DNA of 64,000 nt from an uncultured Pseudomonadota bacterium (lineage in GTDB: Bacteria; Pseudomonadota; Alphaproteobacteria; RF32; CAG-239): contig CACWQS010000001.1 of NCBI GenBank assembly GCA_902763155.1, forward strand, positions 30,878-94,877, given 5' to 3'. The notes below the pieces were generated by a model, which did no database searches, was not told the origin of the DNA, and saw only the letters and a program-made list of their open reading frames with translations. Made by a program: the position numbers and the translations under genes. The number at the start of each line of letters is the position of its first letter. Within the stretch, counting starts at the first letter, position 1. Positions 419 through 14,508 of the stretch are shown here, one piece after another.

Positions 419-2999
419 AACTTTAGAAGACTTAGATAAACTTCTTGATAGAGTTCATATTGCTCAAAATAAGTTTGCCACATTTTCGGAAGCAAAAGTT
501 GATGAAATTTTTAAGGCGGCAGCAATGGCGGCTAATAAAATGCGCATTGAGTTGGCTGAAATGGCGGTTGAAGAAACCGGTATGGGGGTATTGGAAGATA
601 AAGTTATCAAAAATCATTTTGCTTCGGAATACATCTATAATAAACACAAAGGTATTAAAACTTGCGGTATTATCAGCCAAGATAAAATTAACGGGACTAA
701 AATAGTGGCGGCACCGCTTGGGGTGCTTGCCGGTATTGTGCCAACGACAAACCCTACTTCTACGGCTATTTTTAAATCGCTTATTTGCCTAAAAACCAGA
801 AACGGCATAGTTTTTTCACCACATCCGAAAGCAAAAAAATCGACTATTGCTGCAGCAAAAGTTGTTTTAGATGCCGCAGTAAAAGCAGGTGCTCCTGAGG
901 ATATTATCGGTTGGATTGACGAACCTTCGGTTGAGCTGTCGAGCGCATTAATGCAACATCCGAAAGTGCAGGGAATTTTGGCGACCGGTGGGCCGGGGAT
1001 GGTTAAGGCGGCTTATTCCAGCGGCAAACCGGCATTGGGTGTAGGTGCCGGTAATACGCCGGCAATTATTGATGAAACGGCAGACATAAAGTTGGCAGTA
1101 TCGTCGATTTTGTTATCCAAAACTTTTGATAACGGAATGATTTGTGCTTCGGAGCAGTCGGTAATTGTGGTAAAAGATGTTTACGAAGAGGTTAAAAAAG
1201 AATTTGTATATCGCGGCGCGTATCTTTTAAATAAGAAAGAGGCCGAAGCGTTGGGAAAAATCATTTTGACAGATAAAGGTGTGAATGCCGGTATAGTTGG
1301 GCAGACTGCCTATAAAATCGCCGAATTAGCCGGTATTAAAGTACCAAGCGATACGAAAATTTTGCTGGCAGAACAAACAGATTACAGCGCTAAAAATCCG
1401 TATGCTCATGAGAAACTGTCTCCGATTTTAACAATGTATAAGGCTGATGATTTTGAAAAAGCGACAGATATTGCTTTAGCTCTGGTTAATATCGGCGGTT
1501 TAGGGCATACATCGGCTCTATATACAGATGCAAGAGTTCAAGACAGGATTGATATGTATGCCCAAAAAATGCCGACAGGACGTATTCTAATCAATTCTCC
1601 GTCTTCGCAAGGCGGTATCGGAGATTTGTATAATTTTCGCTTGGAACCATCGTTGACTTTGGGTTGCGGTTCTTGGGGAGAAAATTCGGTAAGTGAAAAT
1701 ATCGGTGTAAAACATTTATTAAATTATAAGACGGTTGCAGAAAGGAGAGAGAATATGTTGTGGTTCAGAGTGCCTCCGAAAATCTATTTCAAACGCGGTT
1801 CAACCGAACTGGCGTTACGTGAATATGTCGAAAAGAAAAGGGCGTTTGTGGTTACGGACAGATTTTTGTTTGATTCCGGAGCAACGCGTGCAATAACTGA
1901 TGTTTTTGAAGATATGAATATCGATTATCAAATTTTCTTTGATGTTCAACCGGACCCGACAATATCTACAGCCAAGCAGGTAATGGCCACGGTAAATGCG
2001 TATCAACCGGATTTGATTGTGGCATTAGGCGGTGGTTCGCCGATGGATGTAGCTAAGATTATTTGGTTGTTATATGAGCAGCCTGATACGAATTTTGAAG
2101 ATATATCCATGCGTTTTATGGATATCAGAAAGCGCATATGCTCTATTCCGGAATTAGGAAAAAAAGCGGACTTGGTTTGTATTCCGACGACATCAGGTAC
2201 CGGTTCGGAAGTTACTCCGTTTTCGGTTATTACCGATGATGAAACGCATGTAAAATATGCTATTGCCGATTATGCTCTGACACCTAAAATGGCAATTATT
2301 GATGCCAACTATGTTGATAATATGCCGAAAGGATTGACCGCTGCCGGAGGGATTGATGCATTGGTTCATGCCTTAGAATCTTATGTATCGGTTATGGCAA
2401 CCAACTACACAAATTCACTGGCTCTGGAAGCCATTAAGCAAATTTTCCGTTATTTGCCGGCGGCGTATAACAAGGGAGCAAATGATCCGATAGCCAGAGA
2501 AAAAATGCACAATGCCGCAACTATTGCCGGTATGGCCTTTGCTAATGCTTTTTTAGGGGTTTGCCATTCTATGGCTCATAAATTGGGAGCTATGTATAAC
2601 ATTCCACACGGAATAGCTAATGCACTGTTGATTTGTCAGGTCATTCGGTTTAATGCGACAGATTGCCCGAAAAAACAAGCAGTGTTTCCGCAGTATATAG
2701 CTCCGGAAGCCAAAAAAAGGTATGGGCAAATTGCACACGTGTTATATTTGGCAGATGAAAATGTTTCCGATGATGAAAAAGTGGAACGTTTACTACAAGC
2801 TATTGCTAAGCTGAAGGAGGAAATCGGCATACCTAAGTCCATTCGTGAATGGGGTGTAGATGAAAAGCTTTTCAAGCAAAATTTAGATGAGTTAGTCAGA
2901 TTGGCATTTGATGACCAGTGTACGGGGGCAAATCCGGTATATCCGCTGATGAGCGATATTAAGCAGATGTATCTTGATGCTTATGAAGGAAAATATTAA
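405..2999 (+). CDS. adhE: Bifunctional acetaldehyde-CoA / alcohol dehydrogenase (AdhE), 864 aa
   Basis: Full-length two-domain architecture. The N-terminal aldehyde dehydrogenase domain has the ...GPGMVKAAYSSGKPALGVGAGNTP... motif and the C-terminal iron-dependent ADH domain has GGGSPMDVAKI and His-rich motifs. A GAAAGGAAGGA ribosome-binding site lies upstream. Confidence 0.95.
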   Translation: MTSVKTLEDLDKLLDRVHIAQNKFATFSEAKVDEIFKAAAMAANKMRIELAEMAVEETGMGVLEDKVIKNHFASEYIYNKHKGIKTCGIISQDKINGTKIVAAPLGVLAGIVPTTNPTSTAIFKSLICLKTRNGIVFSPHPKAKKSTIAAAKVVLDAAVKAGAPEDIIGWIDEPSVELSSALMQHPKVQGILATGGPGMVKAAYSSGKPALGVGAGNTPAIIDETADIKLAVSSILLSKTFDNGMICASEQSVIVVKDVYEEVKKEFVYRGAYLLNKKEAEALGKIILTDKGVNAGIVGQTAYKIAELAGIKVPSDTKILLAEQTDYSAKNPYAHEKLSPILTMYKADDFEKATDIALALVNIGGLGHTSALYTDARVQDRIDMYAQKMPTGRILINSPSSQGGIGDLYNFRLEPSLTLGCGSWGENSVSENIGVKHLLNYKTVAERRENMLWFRVPPKIYFKRGSTELALREYVEKKRAFVVTDRFLFDSGATRAITDVFEDMNIDYQIFFDVQPDPTISTAKQVMATVNAYQPDLIVALGGGSPMDVAKIIWLLYEQPDTNFEDISMRFMDIRKRICSIPELGKKADLVCIPTTSGTGSEVTPFSVITDDETHVKYAIADYALTPKMAIIDANYVDNMPKGLTAAGGIDALVHALESYVSVMATNYTNSLALEAIKQIFRYLPAAYNKGANDPIAREKMHNAATIAGMAFANAFLGVCHSMAHKLGAMYNIPHGIANALLICQVIRFNATDCPKKQAVFPQYIAPEAKKRYGQIAHVLYLADENVSDDEKVERLLQAIAKLKEEIGIPKSIREWGVDEKLFKQNLDELVRLAFDDQCTGANPVYPLMSDIKQMYLDAYEGKY

Positions 3000-4907: not shown

Positions 4908-5336
4908 CTACTCCATAATATCCATTTTATCCAAACGACGTTGGTGCCTTCCACCTTCATATACCGCTTGCATAAAAGTATCAATATATTTAATGACGTC
5001 ATCAACAGTCATTGTTCTTCCGCCAAAGACGAGAATATTGGCATTGTTATGCTCTTTGGCGAGGCGTGCCACTTCTTTACTGTAAATCAGCGCGGCGCGA
5101 ATACCTTTGTAGCGATTCGCCGCGATAGAAATTCCCACGCCGGTTCCGCAAATCAAAATTCCCAGATCTGCCGTTTTATTTTGGATGGCGTGAACCATTT
5201 TCTGCGCCACATCCGGATAATCAACCGACTCGGAGTTGTAGGTTCCCAAATCCGATAAATTCAGGTCGGTATAGTGTTTTTTTAAGGCTTCTTTCAAGTC
5301 GTATCCGCCATGGTCGGCGGCAATAGCTATATTCAT
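4908..5336 (-). CDS. rpiB: Ribose-5-phosphate isomerase B (RpiB/LacAB family)
   Basis: 142 aa with MNIAIAADHGGYDLKE...ICGTGVGISIAANR. It lies 6 nt upstream of glyA on the same strand. Confidence 0.9.
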   Translation of the reverse strand: MNIAIAADHGGYDLKEALKKHYTDLNLSDLGTYNSESVDYPDVAQKMVHAIQNKTADLGILICGTGVGISIAANRYKGIRAALIYSKEVARLAKEHNNANILVFGGRTMTVDDVIKYIDTFMQAVYEGGRHQRRLDKMDIME

Positions 5337-5513: not shown

Positions 5514-5588
5514 GGCCGGTTGGCAGAATGGCTCATGCAGAGGATTGCAAATCCTTCTATATCGGTTCAATTCCGGTACCGGCCTCCA
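5514..5588 (+). tRNA. tRNA-Cys (anticodon GCA)
   Basis: The 7-bp acceptor stem GGCCGGT/ACCGGCC, the anticodon loop tt-GCA-aa, the T-loop GGTTCAATTCC, and an encoded 3' CCA were hand-folded. Confidence 0.85.
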
Positions 5589-5595
5589 AGATTAT

Positions 5596-5670
5596 TCCGA
5601 CTTAGCTCAGCGGTAGAGCAATCGGCTGTTAACCGATTGGTCGTTGGTTCGAATCCGACAGTCGGAGCCA
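5596..5670 (+). tRNA. tRNA-Asn (anticodon GTT)
   Basis: The acceptor stem TCCGACT/AGTCGGA, the anticodon stem-loop ATCGG-CTGTTAA-CCGAT, the T-arm GTTGG-TTCGAAT-CCGAC, a discriminator G, and an encoded CCA were identified. Confidence 0.85.
5652..5670 (+). repeat. Direct-repeat copy 1 (tRNA-Asn 3' end, aatccgacagtcggagcca)
   Basis: It is identical to the 19-mer at 6295..6313. Both copies are followed by a similar terminator hairpin. Confidence 0.8.
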
Positions 5671-5679
5671 ATAAAAAAA

Positions 5680-5704
5680 GACCTCCCTTTGGGGAGGTTT
5701 TTTT
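5680..5704 (+). terminator. Rho-independent terminator after tRNA-Asn
   Basis: acctccc-ttt-gggaggt followed by a T7 run. Confidence 0.6.
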
Positions 5705-5913
5705 GTTGCTTTCAGATGACGAGATGAGAACCAATAGAAGTTGGTTCGACTACAAGGCAAAGGCAGACGGGAGTATGCCGGTCGCATTTAGGTAATGAGT
5801 GAAAGGAAAAGTCTCTGGTACACATTAGCATTATTATTGAAAAATACTTGCAAGACTGGCGTGAGCGTGATAGATTAAAAGGCAGAATTTGGTAATCTGT
5901 TAGGAAAATAATA

Positions 5914-6213
5914 ATGCAGAAAATAATAACCGCAGCGAAACATATATTGATTTTTATAGTATCTTTACTAATTACAACAGGATTTACGGTCGGTATTGTT
6001 TCTGCTTTAATTTTACCAGTGTCTGATGAAAATATAATTTCATTCTTCGGTATAAATAAAAAAGAATTTATACAGTACATTTCAGAACTTTTTGCTTGGG
6101 CTTTTATTTTGACGTATTTATTCAAAAATAAAATATCAAACAGAGTGTATTTTATTCTTATTTATTTGTCGTTGTGCGCAATTTTGTTATTTGTACCGAT
6201 GCTGTTGGGGTAA
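5914..6213 (+). CDS. Small hypothetical membrane protein (99 aa, 3 predicted TM helices) inside the tRNA-Asn-flanked insert
   Basis: An ORF with strongly hydrophobic segments. It has no recognisable family and is AT-rich. Confidence 0.3.
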   Translation: MQKIITAAKHILIFIVSLLITTGFTVGIVSALILPVSDENIISFFGINKKEFIQYISELFAWAFILTYLFKNKISNRVYFILIYLSLCAILLFVPMLLG

Positions 6214-6294
6214 TATAGTATAGACAAAGGCGAGCGGCAGAACGCCGGTCGGCGATAAGCCGATTGCCGCAATGAAACGAGCTTAAGCGAGGAT

Positions 6295-6313
6295 AATCCG
6301 ACAGTCGGAGCCA
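6295..6313 (+). repeat. Direct-repeat copy 2: a partial tRNA-Asn 3' end (T-arm 3' half, acceptor 3' strand and CCA) without the 5' part of the tRNA
   Basis: An exact 19-nt match to 5652..5670. The upstream sequence does not fold as a tRNA. Confidence 0.8.
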
Positions 6314-6321
6314 TAAAGAAA

Positions 6322-6346
6322 AGCCACCCCTTGCGGGTGGTTTTTT
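6322..6346. terminator. Bidirectional terminator (ccaccc-cttgc-gggtgg plus a T6 run), similar in structure but not in sequence to the one after tRNA-Asn
   Basis: A hairpin with flanking A-rich and T-rich runs. It lies 20 nt downstream of the aas stop on the opposite strand. Confidence 0.55.
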
Positions 6347-6366: not shown

Positions 6367-8544
6367 CTAAGCTGCAACTGATTGTAATTCGGCCAAGACC
6401 TCTTTTTTCAGCGTTACGTTATCAATCTTGCCGGTGGCCGAGGTCGGAATTTTATCCTTATACAAAATCACTCGCGGCATATACAGTTCCGGATAGCCGT
6501 TTTGCTTGATAAAATCGCGCAACATATCAGTTGTCAGGCTCGGTTCGTTAGTTACCACCACGATTTGCTCGCCTTTGTGTTCGTGCGGAACGGCCACCAC
6601 GCCGCAGCAAAAGTCTTCTTTGCCTTCAAAAGCCTTGGTAATCATATTTTCTACCGCACGCAGAGATACCATTTCTCCACCGATTTTAGCAAAGCGCTTA
6701 ATTCGGTCTTTGATGCTGATAAAGCCGATTTCATCAATTTCGACCACATCGCCGGTATGATACCAACCATCTTCCGGCGGCACCAAAACCCCCGGATTAT
6801 CGGCCATAATGTATCCGGCCATCACATTCGGGCCTTTAACCACCAACTCGCCGCCGTTTTCGATACCGTCAACCTTATCAAGCCGACATTGCATCCCCGG
6901 ACAAAGCTTGCCGATGGTTCCGAATTTGTTAAATACCATGTTGTTCCCCGCTACTGCCGGCGAACATTCGGTAGTTCCGTAAGCTTCCATCAGGCGAACG
7001 CCCAATTTTTCGTTCAAAATATTGCGCGTATCGAGTTTAACCCCTTCGGCGCCGGCATAGCACAAACGCAAAGTGCCGAAATCAAGCGGGTGCGAAATCT
7101 TGGCATAGCTGCGGAAAAACGTGTCGGTTCCAATCATTACCGTAGCGCCAAGTTCATACAATAAGTCGCTGATAATGCGGAAATGCAATGGGGAAGGGTA
7201 AAGAAACACCTTTGCCCCCTGATACAACGCATACAGCGTACCCAAAACCAACCCGAAGCTATGGAAAATCGGCATGGAATTAAGCACCACGTCAGTACGA
7301 TTGAGCGTTTCAAAGGTGGCAATTTGCCAAACATTGGAAATTACATTCCGGTTGGAAAGAACTACTGCTTTCGGGGCACCTTCGGAGCCGGAAGTAAATA
7401 AAATCACGGCACGATCGTCAGGAGTTGCCTTATACGGAACATATTTCACTTTATATTGCAACAAAGCCAAAATCTTGGCAAAAATCGAGATTTTTTTAGC
7501 TTCTTCTTCCAAATAGCAAACCTCAAAACCATTCTCTTTTATGGCTTCTACCACCTCTTCAAGTCCGGCTTTTTTAACAAACATTTTGGAAGTAATAACC
7601 TTTTTGCAAAGGGTACTCTTCAGTCCGCTGACGATATTTTTGACGCCGGCGCTGAAATTAAGCATTACCGGTACTTGACCGTAGGCATTCAGTCCGAAAA
7701 ATGTGCAAATTGCTGCTACCGAATTCGGCAACATTATTGCTACAGATTCCTGATGTGCGGCATTTTTATGGAAGTGCCGCCCGAGAACGTAAGATGCCAG
7801 CATGATATCTTTGAAACTTTTCGGCTTGCGGGTAATATCTTCAAGCACCTTAGGACGCTTAAAACCGAAGGCCTTTTTAGCGTGGATTTTGGCCGCTTTA
7901 ATCAGTTGCGTAAATACCGTAAGTTGCGGATTATACATAGCTTCAAAGGCTTGTTCACGCATAATCATATAGATTTCGTTGGAAATATGGTTACGTTGAT
8001 GGCGCAGTTCGTCTTTGAGCTTTAACGGTCTCGGGGCATCGACCACAATTTTAACTTTCGGGAAATAGCGGTGCGGCAAGCGTCCTCTGGTCTTTGAAAA
8101 ATGGCAATATTGCAAGCCGTTAATCCAAATCGGGATAACCGGAGAATCGGTTTTATCGGCGAGCAAGCCGGCACCTTCATAAATCTTCATAATATTGCCG
8201 TTTAAGGTCATTCTTCCTTCAGGAAACATCACACAAAGACGGCCGGAATTAACTAAAGAAATGAGTTGTTTCAAATCAGGAATATCAATATTGCCGTATT
8301 CAACCACATCGGCGGTTTTCATCAATAAACGCACCCAATAGCTGCGGTACAGTTGTCCGTGCAACGCGAAAACCGGATTTCCCGGTAAAAAAGCAAACAA
8401 CACAATCGGATCAACATAAGAAACGTGGTTAGATATATACAATCCTTTGGTTGGCAGTTTTGAAATGTCAAAACGCATTTCAAAACGAACCTTAAAAAGT
8501 CTGAAAAAACAACGCAAACAAAAACGAACAAAATCACGCATCAT
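6367..8544 (-). CDS. aas: Bifunctional 2-acylglycerophosphoethanolamine acyltransferase / acyl-ACP synthetase (Aas-like)
   Basis: The N-terminal PlsC-type acyltransferase has an HX4D motif (NHVSYVD) and the C-terminal AMP-binding domain has TSGSEGAPKAV. The start was chosen at ATGATG (MMRDF...), which is preceded by a GGGAG ribosome-binding site. The ORF is open up to 8631, which is an alternative start. Confidence 0.75.
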   Translation of the reverse strand: MMRDFVRFCLRCFFRLFKVRFEMRFDISKLPTKGLYISNHVSYVDPIVLFAFLPGNPVFALHGQLYRSYWVRLLMKTADVVEYGNIDIPDLKQLISLVNSGRLCVMFPEGRMTLNGNIMKIYEGAGLLADKTDSPVIPIWINGLQYCHFSKTRGRLPHRYFPKVKIVVDAPRPLKLKDELRHQRNHISNEIYMIMREQAFEAMYNPQLTVFTQLIKAAKIHAKKAFGFKRPKVLEDITRKPKSFKDIMLASYVLGRHFHKNAAHQESVAIMLPNSVAAICTFFGLNAYGQVPVMLNFSAGVKNIVSGLKSTLCKKVITSKMFVKKAGLEEVVEAIKENGFEVCYLEEEAKKISIFAKILALLQYKVKYVPYKATPDDRAVILFTSGSEGAPKAVVLSNRNVISNVWQIATFETLNRTDVVLNSMPIFHSFGLVLGTLYALYQGAKVFLYPSPLHFRIISDLLYELGATVMIGTDTFFRSYAKISHPLDFGTLRLCYAGAEGVKLDTRNILNEKLGVRLMEAYGTTECSPAVAGNNMVFNKFGTIGKLCPGMQCRLDKVDGIENGGELVVKGPNVMAGYIMADNPGVLVPPEDGWYHTGDVVEIDEIGFISIKDRIKRFAKIGGEMVSLRAVENMITKAFEGKEDFCCGVVAVPHEHKGEQIVVVTNEPSLTTDMLRDFIKQNGYPELYMPRVILYKDKIPTSATGKIDNVTLKKEVLAELQSVAA

Positions 8545-8697
8545 GGCATTTTCTCCCAAAATATCCAAACGTGCGGTCAGTATATTATATTTTATTTTGT
8601 GTGTAAAGGACGATATGGCAGAAATACCCATTGACGGTGGAAATATTGTGTGGTATAAGGAGATTGAATAAAAATTATAAATATATTATTAGAAACT

Positions 8698-10769: not shown

Positions 10770-12203
10770 TTACGAAAGTTTATCTATTGCTGTTTTTATA
10801 CGTTTTAATGTTTCCTCTTTACCCAAAATAACCGCCAATTCGGTGGCACCTCCCGGGGTTGTTTCCTTACCGGAAAGGGCAATTCGTACCGGATATAAAA
10901 TCTGCCCGTTTTTCATTTCATGAGCAACGGCCGTATTTTTTAACGTTTCAAAAAGGTTTTCATTGGTCCATTCGGTTACTTCAGATAATACAGGCAATAC
11001 CAATTCCAATGCCTTTCGAGCGATTTCCGATGTGGTTTTCATCTTTTTGTTTTCATACAGGGCAGGGGAATATTCCTTTACCGCTTGCAAAAAGTCAATT
11101 TGCTCCGTAATTTGTCCCAATGTTTCTACACGCGGTTGCAAAGCCGCACTTAAAGCAATGCGGTCTATCGGAGTTGTGATATGAGCATAATATGGTTCAG
11201 CCAGAGCGGCAAATTCTTCGGCGCTTAAGTTACGGATATAGCACCCGTTCATCCATGTTAATTTGTTAATATCAAAAATTGCCGGAGATTTGTTTAAGCG
11301 TTCTGAAGTGAAGCATTGTTTCAGTTCATCAAGCGAAAAAATTTCGCGTTCATCACCGGGATTCCAGCCTAAGAGGGCAATATAATTCAAAATTGCTTCC
11401 GGTAGATAGCCTTTGGCAACAAGGTCTTGGAAAGAGGCGTCGCCGTTGCGTTTACTTAACTTATGTTGCGCATCTTTCATCACCGGCGGAACATGCACAT
11501 AAATAGGTGGCTCCCAGCCGAAAGCCTCGTAAATAAGATTATATTTCGGAGTGGAAGAAATATATTCGTTACCACGAACAACATGAGAGATTTGCATCAA
11601 ATGGTCATCAATCACATTGGCAAAATTATAGGTCGGCAGACCGTCAGATTTCAGCAATACGCCTTCATCAAGTTCGTCGTAATCAATTTCAATATCACCA
11701 TAAACAACATCATGAAAGATGGAAGTGCCTTTTTTATTGATATTTTGGCGCACCACAAAAGGTTCTCCGGCTGCTATGCGCTTTTTTGCTTCTCCCAGCG
11801 GAATAAGCCGGCACGGGTCTTTTAATTTGGCATGGGTTGTGATGTTTTCTTCCTCGTTTTCTTCTTCATCTTTATGGGCACAAAAACAATAATGCGCTCC
11901 GCCGAGTTCGACTAATTTGTGAGCATATTCGGCATAAATAGATTTGCGTTCCGATTGCACATAAGGACCGAAATTGCCGCCGATATCCGGACCTTCGTCC
12001 CACAGCATTCCCACTCGCTTTAAAGTTTTGAAGATAATATCCGTTGCGCCTTCAACATAGCGTTTTTGGTCGGTATCTTCAATACGCAAAATAAAATCTC
12101 CGCCTGTCGATTTAGCAATCAGATATTCATATAAAGCGGTGCGCAAATTACCGATGTGCATATAACCGGTAGGGCTTGGGGCAAATCTGGTTCTGGTTTT
12201 CAT
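10770..12203 (-). CDS. gltX: Glutamyl-tRNA synthetase
   Basis: HIGH motif (PSPTGYMHIGNLRTALY) and KMSKS motif (KLSKR). The start was set at MKTRTRF, which follows a GAGGAA ribosome-binding site. The ORF is open to 12242. Confidence 0.9.
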   Translation of the reverse strand: MKTRTRFAPSPTGYMHIGNLRTALYEYLIAKSTGGDFILRIEDTDQKRYVEGATDIIFKTLKRVGMLWDEGPDIGGNFGPYVQSERKSIYAEYAHKLVELGGAHYCFCAHKDEEENEEENITTHAKLKDPCRLIPLGEAKKRIAAGEPFVVRQNINKKGTSIFHDVVYGDIEIDYDELDEGVLLKSDGLPTYNFANVIDDHLMQISHVVRGNEYISSTPKYNLIYEAFGWEPPIYVHVPPVMKDAQHKLSKRNGDASFQDLVAKGYLPEAILNYIALLGWNPGDEREIFSLDELKQCFTSERLNKSPAIFDINKLTWMNGCYIRNLSAEEFAALAEPYYAHITTPIDRIALSAALQPRVETLGQITEQIDFLQAVKEYSPALYENKKMKTTSEIARKALELVLPVLSEVTEWTNENLFETLKNTAVAHEMKNGQILYPVRIALSGKETTPGGATELAVILGKEETLKRIKTAIDKLS

Positions 12204-12288: not shown

Positions 12289-14508
12289 TTACTTAAAAAA
12301 TTTGTTATTTTTCGGGAAGCCGAACGGAACCAGTTTTCCTACCTGTGCTCGATGTCCAAGCCAAGTTATCAGTTCTTTTTCGGTGCATATACCGCCGGTA
12401 CGGCTGTAACTGAAGCCGACTTCGCCGTTAAATATTTGAATGTCGGTAATTGAGCCGTCTTTATATTTTTGCAGCAAAACGCCGTGTCCGCGCGCCATCG
12501 TCGGGATTTCTTCCGCCTTAAACACCAATAACTTGCGGTTTTCGCCGACAATTGCCACATAATCACCGGTCATTTTAAGGCAGAATTTGACTGTTTCTCC
12601 GTCAAGCACATTCATAATCTTACGTCCTTGCCGTGTTTGCGCCAAAATATGATTCTCATCAACTATAAATCCATACGCCTTATCCGATGCTAACAAATAT
12701 TGCGCGGCAGGATCATAAACAAACATTGCGGCTACATCGTCATTATTGGCCAAATCTATCATCAGACGCACCGGTTGTCCGAAACCGCGTCCGCTCGGAA
12801 TATCATTTGCCGCAATGCTGAAAAACTTGCCTTTGTTATCTAAAATCACGATTTTATCGGTGGTTTGAGCATGAATAGCAAATGCCAAGGCGTCATCATC
12901 TTTGAATTTGAACTCGTCTTTCAAATCAGCGTAGCCTTTAAGCGCTCGTATCCAGCCTTTTTGCGATAAAATTACGGTAATTGGCTCTTTTTCTATCATC
13001 GCTTCTACCGGTACTTCAATATCAGTTGGTGCTTCGGCAAATTCGGTGCGACGGCGCCCCAGAGCCGTGCGCTTACTATATTTTTCCTTAATACGCTTAA
13101 TTTCTTCAGCTATTGCTTCCCAGCGCTTATCTTCGTTATTTTGCAAGATTTCCAATGTTGCTTTTTCGGTCAACAAATCGCTGTGTTCAGTTTCAATTTG
13201 TGCTTCATCAAGTTTGCGTAAGTTACGCAATTTCATATTTAAAATCGCTTCAGCCTGCGTATCTGTCAGCTTGAATTTTGCCATCATTACCGCCTTTGGT
13301 TCATCTTCTTCGCGGATAATTCGGATAATTTCATCGAGGTTCAGATAGGCAATCAGGTAGCCTTCAAGAATTTCAAGTCTTGCGTTAATTTTATTTAATC
13401 TATAATTGATTTTACGTAATAAAATGTAATTTCTGTGCAGTAAATATGCTTTCAAAACCTCTTTAATACTCATCACGTGCGGCACCCCGTCAGCGTCAAG
13501 CACATTCATATTCATATTGAACTTAGCTTCCATATCGGTCAGCTTATAGAGTTGTTCCATCAGCATTTTGGCATCAACCAGACGGCTTTTCGGCTCTAGC
13601 ACAATCCGCACATCTTGTGCCGATTCATCACGCACATCGCCTAAAAACGGCAGTTTTTTATTAAGCAGAAGCTCGGCGATTTTTTCTATCAGCTTTGATT
13701 TTATTACTCCATACGGAATTTCTGTTACCACAATCTGATATTGCCCATGTCCCAAGTCTTCGGTGCCCCATTTGGCACGAATGCGGAAATTACCTTTTCC
13801 TTGCTGGTAGTTATGTAATATAGTTTCAAAACTATCTACAATGGTGCCGCCGGTCGGAAAATCCGGCCCTTTGATACGTCGCACCATAGCTTCATCGTCG
13901 GCATCGGGATTTTCAATCAAATACAGCATGGCATCACTGACTTCGCTCAAATTATGCGGCGGAATATTGGTTGCCATACCAACGGCAATACCCATCGCGC
14001 CGTTGCACAGCAAATTCGGTACCATTGCAGGCATTACCGACGGTTCACTGTCTTCGCCGTCGTAGGTGTCGACAAACTCAACCGCGTCATCGTTCAATCC
14101 GTCCATCAAATCCATGGCAAATTCGGTCAATCGCGCTTCGGTATAACGCATTGCCGCCGCACCGTCGCCGTCAATATTGCCAAAGTTGCCTTGTCCGTCA
14201 ACCAAAGGATAACGTACCGAAAAATCTTGTGCCAATCTTACCATGGCTCCGTAAACGGCGCTATCGCCGTGCGGGTGATATTTACCGATAACATCACCGA
14301 CAACGCGCGCGCATTTTTTGTAACCATTCTTTGGGTCCAAATGCAGTTGCCGCATGGCATACATCAAACGCCGATGCACAGGCTTTAAGCCATCGCGAAC
14401 ATCGGGAAGCGAGCGTGATACAATGGTTGACATCGCATACGATAAATAACGTTTGCTTAACTCTTCGCTAAATTGCACATCTCTGATTTTGATATTATCT
14501 TCTGCCAT
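12289..14508 (-). CDS. parC: DNA topoisomerase IV subunit A (ParC; GyrA-family, 739 aa)
   Basis: The N-terminus ...[17 protein letters not shown]... and active-site region are typical of GyrA/ParC. The length and lack of a GyrA box fit ParC. Confidence 0.8.

Follow-up and report, generated by a model that had tools for sequence, protein, structure and literature searches.

In a contig of an uncultured alphaproteobacterium (Pseudomonadota; GTDB lineage RF32, CAG-239; GenBank assembly GCA_902763155.1, contig CACWQS010000001.1, forward strand positions 30,878 to 94,877) the last nucleotides (nt) of a tRNA-Asn gene are found a second time downstream of the gene, which raises the question how a tRNA tail came to stand there without its tRNA. 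The stretch of 64,000 nt that we analysed is called the window in the following, and coordinates refer to it unless a related locus (L numbers) is named. Repeats of tRNA 3' ends are routinely read as integrase scars, and an earlier note on this DNA had read the repeat as the trace of a decayed integrative element, with a degraded tandem tRNA as the alternative. Our analysis provides good support for the view that the second tRNA-Asn tail is the right-hand end of a module from a family that is lodged behind tRNA genes of related rumen and gut Alphaproteobacteria. There is reasonable support for an exchange of these modules as whole units and for their coding for a structured single strand. Taken together we favour, with a probability of roughly 0.55, a module that is not autonomous, is exchanged horizontally and specifies a structured RNA resembling a tRNA.

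The intact tRNA-Asn(gtt) gene occupies 5596-5670 on the plus strand (detected by ARAGORN, and with 70.7 bits by the Rfam tRNA model). Its last 19 nt, AATCCGACAGTCGGAGCCA at 5652-5670, recur exactly at 6295-6313. These are the only two exact occurrences in the 64 kb and no extra matches were obtained at up to 3 mismatches; the mean for shuffled sequences was 0.01, with 0 of 100 shuffles reaching two. The repeat starts in the T-loop at nt 58/59 of the tRNA and is best read as nt 59-76, i.e. as 18 nt. The 19th base, A58, is ambiguous because the body of the element itself ends in A. Each copy is followed by a hairpin terminator with an A run before and a T run after the stem: terminator 1 at 5675-5704 (plus strand, found by a terminator scan; stem 5681-5698, ACCTCCC/GGGAGGT) and terminator 2 at 6324-6346 (placed on the plus strand, reported by the scan for the minus strand; stem 6324-6340, CCACCC-CTTGC-GGGTGG). 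Terminator 2 is bidirectional and also ends the convergent acyltransferase/acyl-ACP synthetase gene (6367-8631, minus strand). Its hairpin was found again beside modules in L111, L125, L147 and L121. Upstream of the second copy, at 6200-6313, neither ARAGORN nor Rfam detected a tRNA. The exact recurrence, the hairpin after each copy and the missing tRNA body had all been described in the earlier note and were confirmed here.

The interval between the two copies contains more than the small open reading frame (ORF) that the earlier note had taken to be its only content. We built a profile of one module type, type A, from seven units of other loci, leaving the window out. Using nhmmer, 5703-5807 matched profile positions 2-106 of 142 (E = 1.2e-20) and 6226-6313 matched positions 59-142 (E = 2.3e-8). 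Hits obtained with a split profile agreed, and by profile match both pieces belong to the type A family. The two copies overlap at profile positions 59-106. In the window the module pieces extend over 5711-5831 and 6214-6313, while an intact module is about 150-190 nt long. The complete ordered architecture of a module is present, but it is divided between two truncated copies with an ORF of 99 amino acids (aa), ORF99, between them.

Counted from the CCA end of the tRNA, a module consists of a terminator, an arm (a), a purine-rich loop (GAGAA, AAGAA, GAAAA and similar), an arm (c), a body of about 90 nt, an arm (e) and a second, older terminator. Arm (a) is an inverted copy of the local tRNA, which runs from about nt 47/48 outward and reaches at most to about nt 73/74. 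It was present in 14 of 14 units from five tRNA species. Counted from the 3' end, the offset of its inner end was 25-31, with 10 units at 28-29. Arm (c) corresponds to nt 49-58, i.e. the 5' strand of the T-stem plus TTYGA, and arm (e) to nt 59-76, such that the body sits exactly between nt 58 and 59 of a copy of the T-arm. The left half of the body contains TTYGACTACAAGCG, the right half GATGAGCGCAGTGAA, after which the tRNA tail follows further downstream. T54, T55, G57 and A58 were invariant among the aligned units and nt 56 was either C or T. In a real tRNA nt 56 pairs with the D-loop, and C56 is needed only for this contact, which the modules lack. T-loop motifs of other RNAs tolerate insertions at nt 59/60. 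In Asn, Arg, Glu and Gln units arm (a) reads TTTGAA where the complement of the tRNA is TTCGAA. The loop part of arm (a) is therefore inherited, while its T-stem part is local.

All of these parts can be located in the window, each on the plus strand. Arm (a) at 5712-5734 is a degenerate inverted copy of the T-arm and the acceptor 3' strand of tRNA-Asn (about nt 48-72); aligned locally, it agrees with the reverse-complemented tRNA 3' end at 18 of 22 positions. A long imperfect palindrome runs from the tRNA 3' end through terminator 1 into arm (a). Arm (c), GTTGGTTCGA at 5740-5749, directly copies tRNA nt 49-58 (the T-stem 5' strand and T54-A58). It is predicted by RNAalifold to pair with 5728-5734 over the loop TAGAA (5735-5739), forming a hairpin H1 that covaries with the local T-stem. 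The left partial type A body (5750-5831) carries CTACAAGG, a stem S1 (5762-5779) with a GGGA tetraloop and a decayed stem S2, then runs into the ORF99 segment; the 3' third of a module is missing from it. The right partial body (6222-6294), also of type A, carries ACAAAGGC; its S1 (6229-6246) has a GGCA tetraloop and is followed by S2 (6249-6263) and a 3' segment ending in GAGGATA; arms (a) and (c) are missing. The right end of the module is formed by arm (e), i.e. the second repeat copy at 6295-6313, which matches tRNA nt 58/59-76 exactly. Segments 5755-5784 and 6222-6251 share 24 identical bases in an alignment of 31 columns. Since the S1 stems differ by compensatory changes (GGCA/TGCC versus GGCG/CGCC), the two pieces come from different modules and not from a fresh target duplication.

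To characterize the fold we aligned 14 units (alignment A1), in which the window was entered as a composite of its two halves. RNAalifold predicted hairpin H1, formed by arms (a) and (c), and a three-way junction of P1, S1 and S2. The fold comprises 20 pairs, 10 of which are supported by compensatory double changes. Paired cells amounted to 94.9%, compared with 83.2% in column shuffles and 25-43% in controls with slid partners. For four of the five measures taken, none of 500 shuffles came up to the observed value; for the remaining one, further pair types, 7 did. S1 is capped by GGAA, GAGA, GGGA, GAAA, GUAA, GGCA or GCAA, i.e. by a GNRA loop in almost all units, and G-U pairs fall on the tRNA-sense strand. 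The unit of L008 folds with arm (a) paired to the 3' tRNA-like arm (e) (z = -3.0).

The fold did not correspond to an Rfam family, whether of tRNA-like or Y RNA-like RNAs, tmRNA, hammerhead and other ribozymes or omega/HEARO RNAs. When the window region, L080 and five loci with modules were scanned at permissive E-values, Rfam gave nothing but the tRNAs and chance hits that were driven by terminators and scored well under the gathering cut-offs. A MIR9563 'hit' in L080 is merely the palindrome of tRNA 3' end, terminator and inverted copy. The junction strands in A1 (CGAAAGG, CCGGUC and GAUGAGCG) were compared with the type II hammerhead core CUGANGA ... GAAA, in which A15.1-U16.1 stacks on stem III and H17 is cleavable. 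When the alignment was inspected, the hammerhead-like core (CGAAAG / GAUGAG / GUC) was rejected: C3/U4 lie inside the covarying S2, two extra G stand between S1 and U, and the Rfam hammerhead models were negative. A tmRNA or permuted tmRNA was also dismissed, ARAGORN being negative and the acceptor Asn-like and not Ala-like.

How far the family extends was determined from related loci. From 106 metagenome loci, 94 tRNA-Asn loci offered enough downstream sequence. In 13 of these 94 the tRNA's own last 15 nt recur at most 1.5 kb downstream, usually 147-191 nt past the tRNA. For other tRNAs such duplicates were seen behind Arg(acg) in 2 of 2, Lys in 1 of 4, Glu(ttc) in 1 of 4 and Cys in 0 of 93 loci. 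The distal repeat matches the local tRNA exactly, including lineage-specific T-stems (CCGAC, CAGGC, CAGAT) and T/C acceptor variants. Type A modules were found behind tRNA-Lys (L012, with two near-identical tandem units, and L031), tRNA-Arg (L010), tRNA-Glu (L038, as the last of three stacked units), tRNA-Pro (L124, truncated), a tRNA of unassigned identity (L021) and tRNA-Gln (GenBank MT836861.1). All complete units end in the 3' end of their own local tRNA, and all modules have the orientation of the tRNA and their own terminator. Bodies taken from different tRNAs resemble each other as closely as those that follow one and the same tRNA in different genomes.

The same flanks also enclose other bodies, namely type B in L057, L072, L080 and L145 and type D in L011. 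In type E, which was found in several human-gut loci, the body is placed after the T-stem instead. A short module M (AAGGATAAAAACAACC...GGTTGTTTTTACCGCAARWGGCGWAG, with its own terminator-like hairpin) occurs downstream of the tRNAs in L125, L021, L144, L055 and L106. It lies inside enlarged type A units (L125, L021) after ACAAGCG and starts type E units. Since module M is found in both types, the units are mosaics of exchangeable blocks.

Several of these loci showed further peculiarities. MT836861.1 (L254), which carries tRNA-Gln and a module, was deposited as 'UNVERIFIED: Bacteriophage sp.', yet its genes include those for a glycosyltransferase, an autotransporter-like protein of 958 aa and a CBS-domain transporter, and it looks bacterial rather than phage-derived. 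In two yak-rumen genomes tRNA-Arg(acg) (L010 6623-6699 and L011 7641-7717, minus strand) has an A52.C62 mismatch in the T-stem (GTGAG/CCCGC), and the L011 unit reproduces the mismatch in its inverted arm. The type D body of L011 opens with a T-loop-like GTTCAATTCCGAC, which resembles the T-arm of another tRNA. At L031 ~12400-12445 (minus strand) only the 3' half of a tRNA-Lys is present, starting from the anticodon loop, with AT-rich DNA before it and a terminator and type A module after it; this looks like the distal end of a larger island at an anticodon-loop site that displaced the tRNA tail together with the module. In L080 a type B unit at 2250-2560 (minus strand), preceded by just CCGGAGCCA and a terminator, lies about 10 kb from the tRNA-Asn array on the same contig, and thus represents a module with a scrap of tRNA tail at a non-tRNA site.

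Comparison of sister loci showed how units are gained and lost. L069 and L070, like L080 and L145, differ by exactly one unit, and L008 carries a unit plus 1.15 kb of orphan genes, both of which are missing in L109. In these three pairs it is the distal terminator that the fuller locus has in common with the empty one; the new material adjoins the tRNA and the tRNA-proximal terminator arrives with the module. Within one human-gut species (99.4% identical upstream) L144 has one unit more than L055. Moreover, unlike bodies are stacked behind a single tRNA: L080 carries an A-like unit followed by B units, and L038 three different units. The filled and empty states that the earlier note had proposed to look for thus exist in sister pairs, but no locus with both flanks of the window was among them. 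As judged from these comparisons, discrete insertion and transfer are favoured over purely local duplication.

What separates the two module pieces in the window is an AT-rich gene segment (5832-6213, plus strand), which consists of about 80 nt of upstream sequence with an AGGAAA ribosome-binding site and of ORF99 (5914-6213), encoding a predicted membrane protein. The GC content drops to 25-32% over this segment, compared with about 45-50% in the flanks; the AT-rich ORF noted earlier was confirmed. Homologues of ORF99 form six clusters with 66-94% identity, all of 99-101 aa. The ratio of nonsynonymous to synonymous substitution rates (dN/dS) was 0.18-0.29, i.e. in the range of purifying selection, and ORF99 is therefore a real gene. 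At the DNA level homology is confined to ~5832-6212 (76-82% identity) and was found in seven short metagenome contigs encoding 99-101-aa homologues, none of which carries a tRNA or a module near the gene. By these alignments ORF99 is a separate, horizontally mobile gene that is unrelated to the modules. It matched no Pfam or PHROG family, and we rejected it as a phage gene, with the endolysin-like and REP_ORF2-G2P neighbours found elsewhere being suggestive at most. These neighbours are an endolysin-like PG_binding_3 fragment in L241 and a weak REP_ORF2-G2P protein near the ORF99 homologue in L244. In L241 (823-1437) and L247 (58-676) another conserved ORF of 99 aa (MPIPIW...) lies ahead of the homologue and makes up a two-gene cassette with it; the window has ORF99 alone without this partner.

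We then asked which enzyme could move the modules. In agreement with the earlier note, no recombinase ORF, and in particular no integrase, was found between the repeats of the window. The genes tabulated for 1-16.2 kb and 34.6-64 kb, about 46 kb of the 64 kb, include no integrase either, only an IS3-type transposase behind tRNA-Met, and the cargo ORFs of related loci showed no integrase domain. Neither IS110, TnpA, TnpB or IscB-like genes in or near modules nor Rfam hits to the RNAs of such systems were obtained; subterminal hairpins and a left flank that is always TTYGA would suit an IS200/IS605-type or IS110-type element without being diagnostic. Among eight proteins considered as partner enzymes (ORF99 and seven module-adjacent ORFs of related loci) only a weak sub-threshold GIY-YIG match appeared. 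It belongs to a 284-aa ORF after the unit array of L080 (~10876-11730, minus strand; 676-1530 nt downstream of tRNA-Asn), and its E = 0.0055 lies below the Pfam cut-off. The similarity of the insert to phages or integrative and conjugative elements (ICEs) that the earlier note had suggested to look for did not materialize. With blastn the insert had no match in 50,697 phage or 72,556 plasmid records, and the module as query gave nothing in plasmids and only MT836861.1 in phages. Pattern scans of viral contigs with three module motifs and two variants of the tRNA-Asn 19-mer yielded nothing or chance hits, none of them confirmed by the profile. In a full-text search of the literature we did not find such modules described; what turned up were general statements that integration leaves partial tRNA genes behind. 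Integrating elements commonly duplicate part of a tRNA gene (PMC9897764).

The reading we favour would combine these results as follows. A module would enter at the 3' end of a tRNA gene, which would stay intact through its resupplied or duplicated last 18 nt and the imported terminator. Since the modules encode no recombinase, they would depend for their movement either on an enzyme whose gene lies elsewhere or on ordinary recombination that follows DNA transfer. In the latter route homology would be provided on one side by the conserved tRNA and on the other by the 18-nt repeat, which would explain that the repeat is always exact and that new units adjoin the tRNA. Candidate movers would accordingly be a T-loop-acting recombinase encoded elsewhere, plain recombination after transfer or a guide-like mechanism. 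A sense transcript, read through from the tRNA operon, may then fold arm (a) onto arms (c) and (e), giving a tRNA-like helix with a CCA tail that bears the three-way junction. Indirect pointers to such a transcript are the orientation of the units, the terminator behind each of them, the G-U pairs on the sense strand and the GNRA loops. In the window two such modules would have been truncated and joined through the unrelated mobile gene for the 99-aa membrane protein.

A number of observations weigh against this reading. Across about 20 module-bearing loci no recombinase, transposase or reverse transcriptase was found in or beside any module. There was no full-length autonomous relative, and the halves of the body were never separated by kilobases. 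In the subfamily of the window the outer half of arm (a) is decayed and pairs poorly with arm (e). Covariation and GNRA-like loops are compatible with a transcript, but single-stranded DNA (ssDNA) hairpins could give the same. A promoter scan of the module was negative, and terminator 1 and arm (a) lie too close together for a promoter to fit between them. An empty site from the same species was not found, and the acyltransferase gene stands behind tRNA-Asn in the window's species only. Finally, the re-tailoring of arms (a) and (c) at seven tRNAs is accounted for by no candidate mover.

The reading of the earlier note survives in part. The repeat does bound inserted DNA with a new terminator and without an integrase, and filled and empty states exist, whereas neither prophage or ICE content nor an integrase mechanism found support. 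In its full form, a tyrosine integrase would have placed an island or prophage at the T-loop of tRNA-Asn by recombining it with an attP that carried the tRNA 3' end, the integrase gene and the interior would later have been deleted with attL, arm sequences and attR left over, and the modules would be deletion derivatives akin to miniature inverted-repeat transposable elements (MITEs), moved by an integrase encoded elsewhere. A direct repeat from the T-loop to CCA fits this, as do the common occurrence of partial tRNA duplication, the own terminator supplied with each unit and the position of new units next to the tRNA, as in tandem accretion. Extra DNA moreover occupies one fixed place of the body, after ACAAGCG, in the window, L125 and L021, and the displaced tRNA-Lys half of L031 implies that ordinary islands are present in the clade. 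A T-loop sublocation of tRNA-integrating elements was reportedly described by Williams in 2002. We nevertheless consider such an island remnant unlikely. Apart from the integrase missing from both the module loci and the tabulated part of the window, the lack of half-modules kilobases apart and the lack of similarity to phages, plasmids or viral contigs, what precedes the distal repeat on its 5' side (GCGAAGTA) is unlike the T-stem and loop expected of a symmetric or T-loop attP core. GNRA-capped covarying stems are not expected of protein-binding att arms, and the inverted tRNA copy together with the direct copy of nt 49-58, re-tailored at seven tRNAs, would be left unexplained. The decay of a tandem tRNA-Asn duplicate is hardly credible. 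Segment 6233-6267 does align weakly with the D and anticodon arms (score 27 compared with a shuffle mean of 15.9, 1 of 500 shuffles being as good) and the downstream terminators are alike with one compensatory difference. However, this segment is S1/S2 of the module and identical behind tRNA-Lys, Arg and Gln, such that it does not stem from the local tRNA-Asn. The 18-19 nt repeat is exact while its surroundings diverged, and the same architecture occurs at six other tRNA species. The earlier note had itself named relatives with an intact second tRNA-Asn gene as the finding that would favour duplication decay; 0 of 106 related loci have two tRNA-Asn genes.

Alternatively, the modules might not move at all but be resident tRNA-linked genes for non-coding RNAs (ncRNAs) of the host with a tRNA-like T-arm/acceptor end, processed by tRNA-maturation enzymes. 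They would have arisen locally when template switching at the palindromes of terminator and T-arm duplicated the tRNA 3' end in inverted and direct form, and would have become patchy by loss and by tandem amplification through unequal crossing-over. The strong covariation with GNRA loops and sense-strand G-U pairs, the body exactly at nt 58|59, where insertions are tolerated, the T-loop nt invariant except for nt 56 and the tRNA orientation of every module with its own terminator are all in agreement with ncRNA genes. The palindrome of tRNA end, terminator and inverted copy is what template switching would give, and near-identical tandem units (L012) and the one-unit indel between L144 and L055 within a species also fit. 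We find this rather unlikely, since only 13 of 94 tRNA-Asn loci carry a module, and duplication cannot produce unrelated bodies stacked with the new one proximal. Bodies are as alike between tRNAs as within a tRNA, which argues that the body moved between loci, and the TTTGAA common to Asn, Arg, Glu and Gln arms argues for common descent and not for independent local origin. A different possibility, and a quite improbable one, is an element homing to tRNA genes whose folded RNA or single strand carries the address. Arms (a), (c) and (e) would rebuild a mimic of the tRNA 3' duplex with the three-way junction placed where the exchange takes place, at nt 58|59. Insertion of the module behind the matching tRNA would be the work of an enzyme that is not linked to it or of the RNA, and retargeting would occur by re-templating of the arms; we attach the same low confidence to all these details taken jointly. 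Very improbable, finally, is guide-like targeting, in which the arms that match the tRNA would lead an unlinked enzyme by pairing with the two strands of the tRNA gene or with the tRNA, comparable to the bridge RNA of IS110 or the omega RNA of IS200/IS605, or an IS200/605-like ssDNA element 3' of TTYGA. A conserved scaffold whose arms change with the target at seven tRNAs points in this direction, as do the 3'-terminal 18 nt, which equal the target sequence and precede a terminator like a 3' guide, the complementarity of arm (a) to one strand and of (c) plus (e) to the other, and the constant left flank TTYGA without a target-site duplication at the body ends. On the other hand, the genes of such systems are lacking in or near modules, the regions scanned with the full Rfam library gave no match, the arms pair mutually, which would mask them, and the outer arm (a) is decayed in the window's subfamily while (e) is exact.

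An exchanged module that specifies a tRNA-like RNA, as favoured here, shares features with several known systems. As in tRNA-targeting integrative elements and their integrase-less derivatives (degenerate islets, cis-mobilizable elements), a tRNA 3' repeat bounds the insert, the tRNA stays intact, units accumulate in tandem at the tRNA and the derivative has no recombinase. In contrast to these, the modules are only 150-190 nt long, have a covarying structured interior rather than att arms and lack any integrase-bearing parent. They furthermore add the inverted tRNA 3' copy and the copy of nt 49-58, and one body is found at seven tRNA species with the arms re-tailored. Similarly, in the integrative mobile elements exploiting Xer (IMEX) at dif (CTXphi, RS1, TLC), whose attP is a folded single strand, tandem arrays of small non-autonomous elements build up at a single chromosomal site, with a copy of the site at the end of each. 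For IMEX the recombinase is supplied by the host, and two inverted copies of the site can fold into a duplex that mimics the target. The counterpart of this duplex in the modules would be arm (e), terminator and arm (a), with an ssDNA stage being purely conjectural. The target of the modules differs, however, being a tRNA 3' end and not dif, and there is neither an Xer-type site nor a phage gene.

Concerning the RNA, the modules resemble the tRNA-like domains of ncRNAs (the tRNA-like domain of tmRNA, the Y-RNA-like YrlA of bacteria and viral 3' tRNA-like structures), in which a T-arm and an acceptor helix with 3' CCA are joined to a foreign domain and the T-loop nt are conserved. In the modules, however, the foreign domain lies inside the T-loop (58|59) and the arms copy the neighbouring tRNA exactly and not a generic tRNA. 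They are also patchy, stacked and linked to tRNA genes, with neither an Rfam match nor a tmRNA reported by ARAGORN. With BIME/REP, BOX, Correia and RUP repeats and MITEs they have in common to be short, non-coding, hairpin-rich modular units at gene 3' ends that form mosaics and vary in copy number. They differ in being tied strictly to tRNA 3' ends, with part of the unit copied from the adjacent gene, and in lacking terminal inverted repeats with a target-site duplication. The IS110 bridge RNA and the IS200/IS605 omega RNA (reRNA), lastly, likewise combine a structured scaffold with target-matching segments, including a 3' stretch of about 18 nt identical to the target. Unlike in these guide RNAs, the arms of the modules are mutually complementary, the target match is much longer, and there is no cognate recombinase or nuclease gene and no match to a family model.

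As to the surroundings of the locus, tRNA-Asn is preceded by tRNA-Cys(gca) (5514-5588, plus strand; ARAGORN, and 56.5 bits with the Rfam tRNA model), the upstream member of a pair from which rpiB (4908-5336, minus strand) is divergent. A scan for the junction found the tRNA-Cys/tRNA-Asn pairing kept in the 106 metagenome loci. Further flanking genes are glyA, mscL and adhE on the side of rpiB, and gltX beside the acyltransferase/acyl-ACP synthetase gene on the other side; their closest relatives come from metagenome-assembled genomes of uncultured rumen and gut Alphaproteobacteria. On four contigs from the window's own species the arrangement is the same, and all four are filled. Elsewhere in the window, a gene for an IS3-family DDE transposase (rve, HTH_21; 388 aa, minus strand, ~63260-64000, continuing beyond the window; L249 11715-12881) starts about 65 nt past tRNA-Met (63118-63194). 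A second tRNA 3' flank in the window therefore holds mobile DNA, though of a different kind. The window also contains an ORF of 2211 aa (30806-37441, minus strand) with no Pfam hit on record.

For this group of uncultured gut Alphaproteobacteria the result means that what looks like a scar of tRNA-tail duplication is a compact, structured, tRNA-tailored module, which at least seven tRNA species have behind them. Should the modules be mobile although they bring no enzyme of their own, short DNA could settle at tRNA loci at little cost and seed the adjoining variable regions, in which ORF99 and other orphan genes sit. If they are RNAs, they would form a new class of tRNA-like ncRNA with a domain between nt 58 and 59 of the T-loop. 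If the homing of a folded strand proves true, insertion would be programmable and guided by nucleic acid, in a system that has no linked protein gene. Whether they act as mobile DNA or as RNA, the modules would account for a share of the partial tRNA hits in metagenome-assembled genomes.

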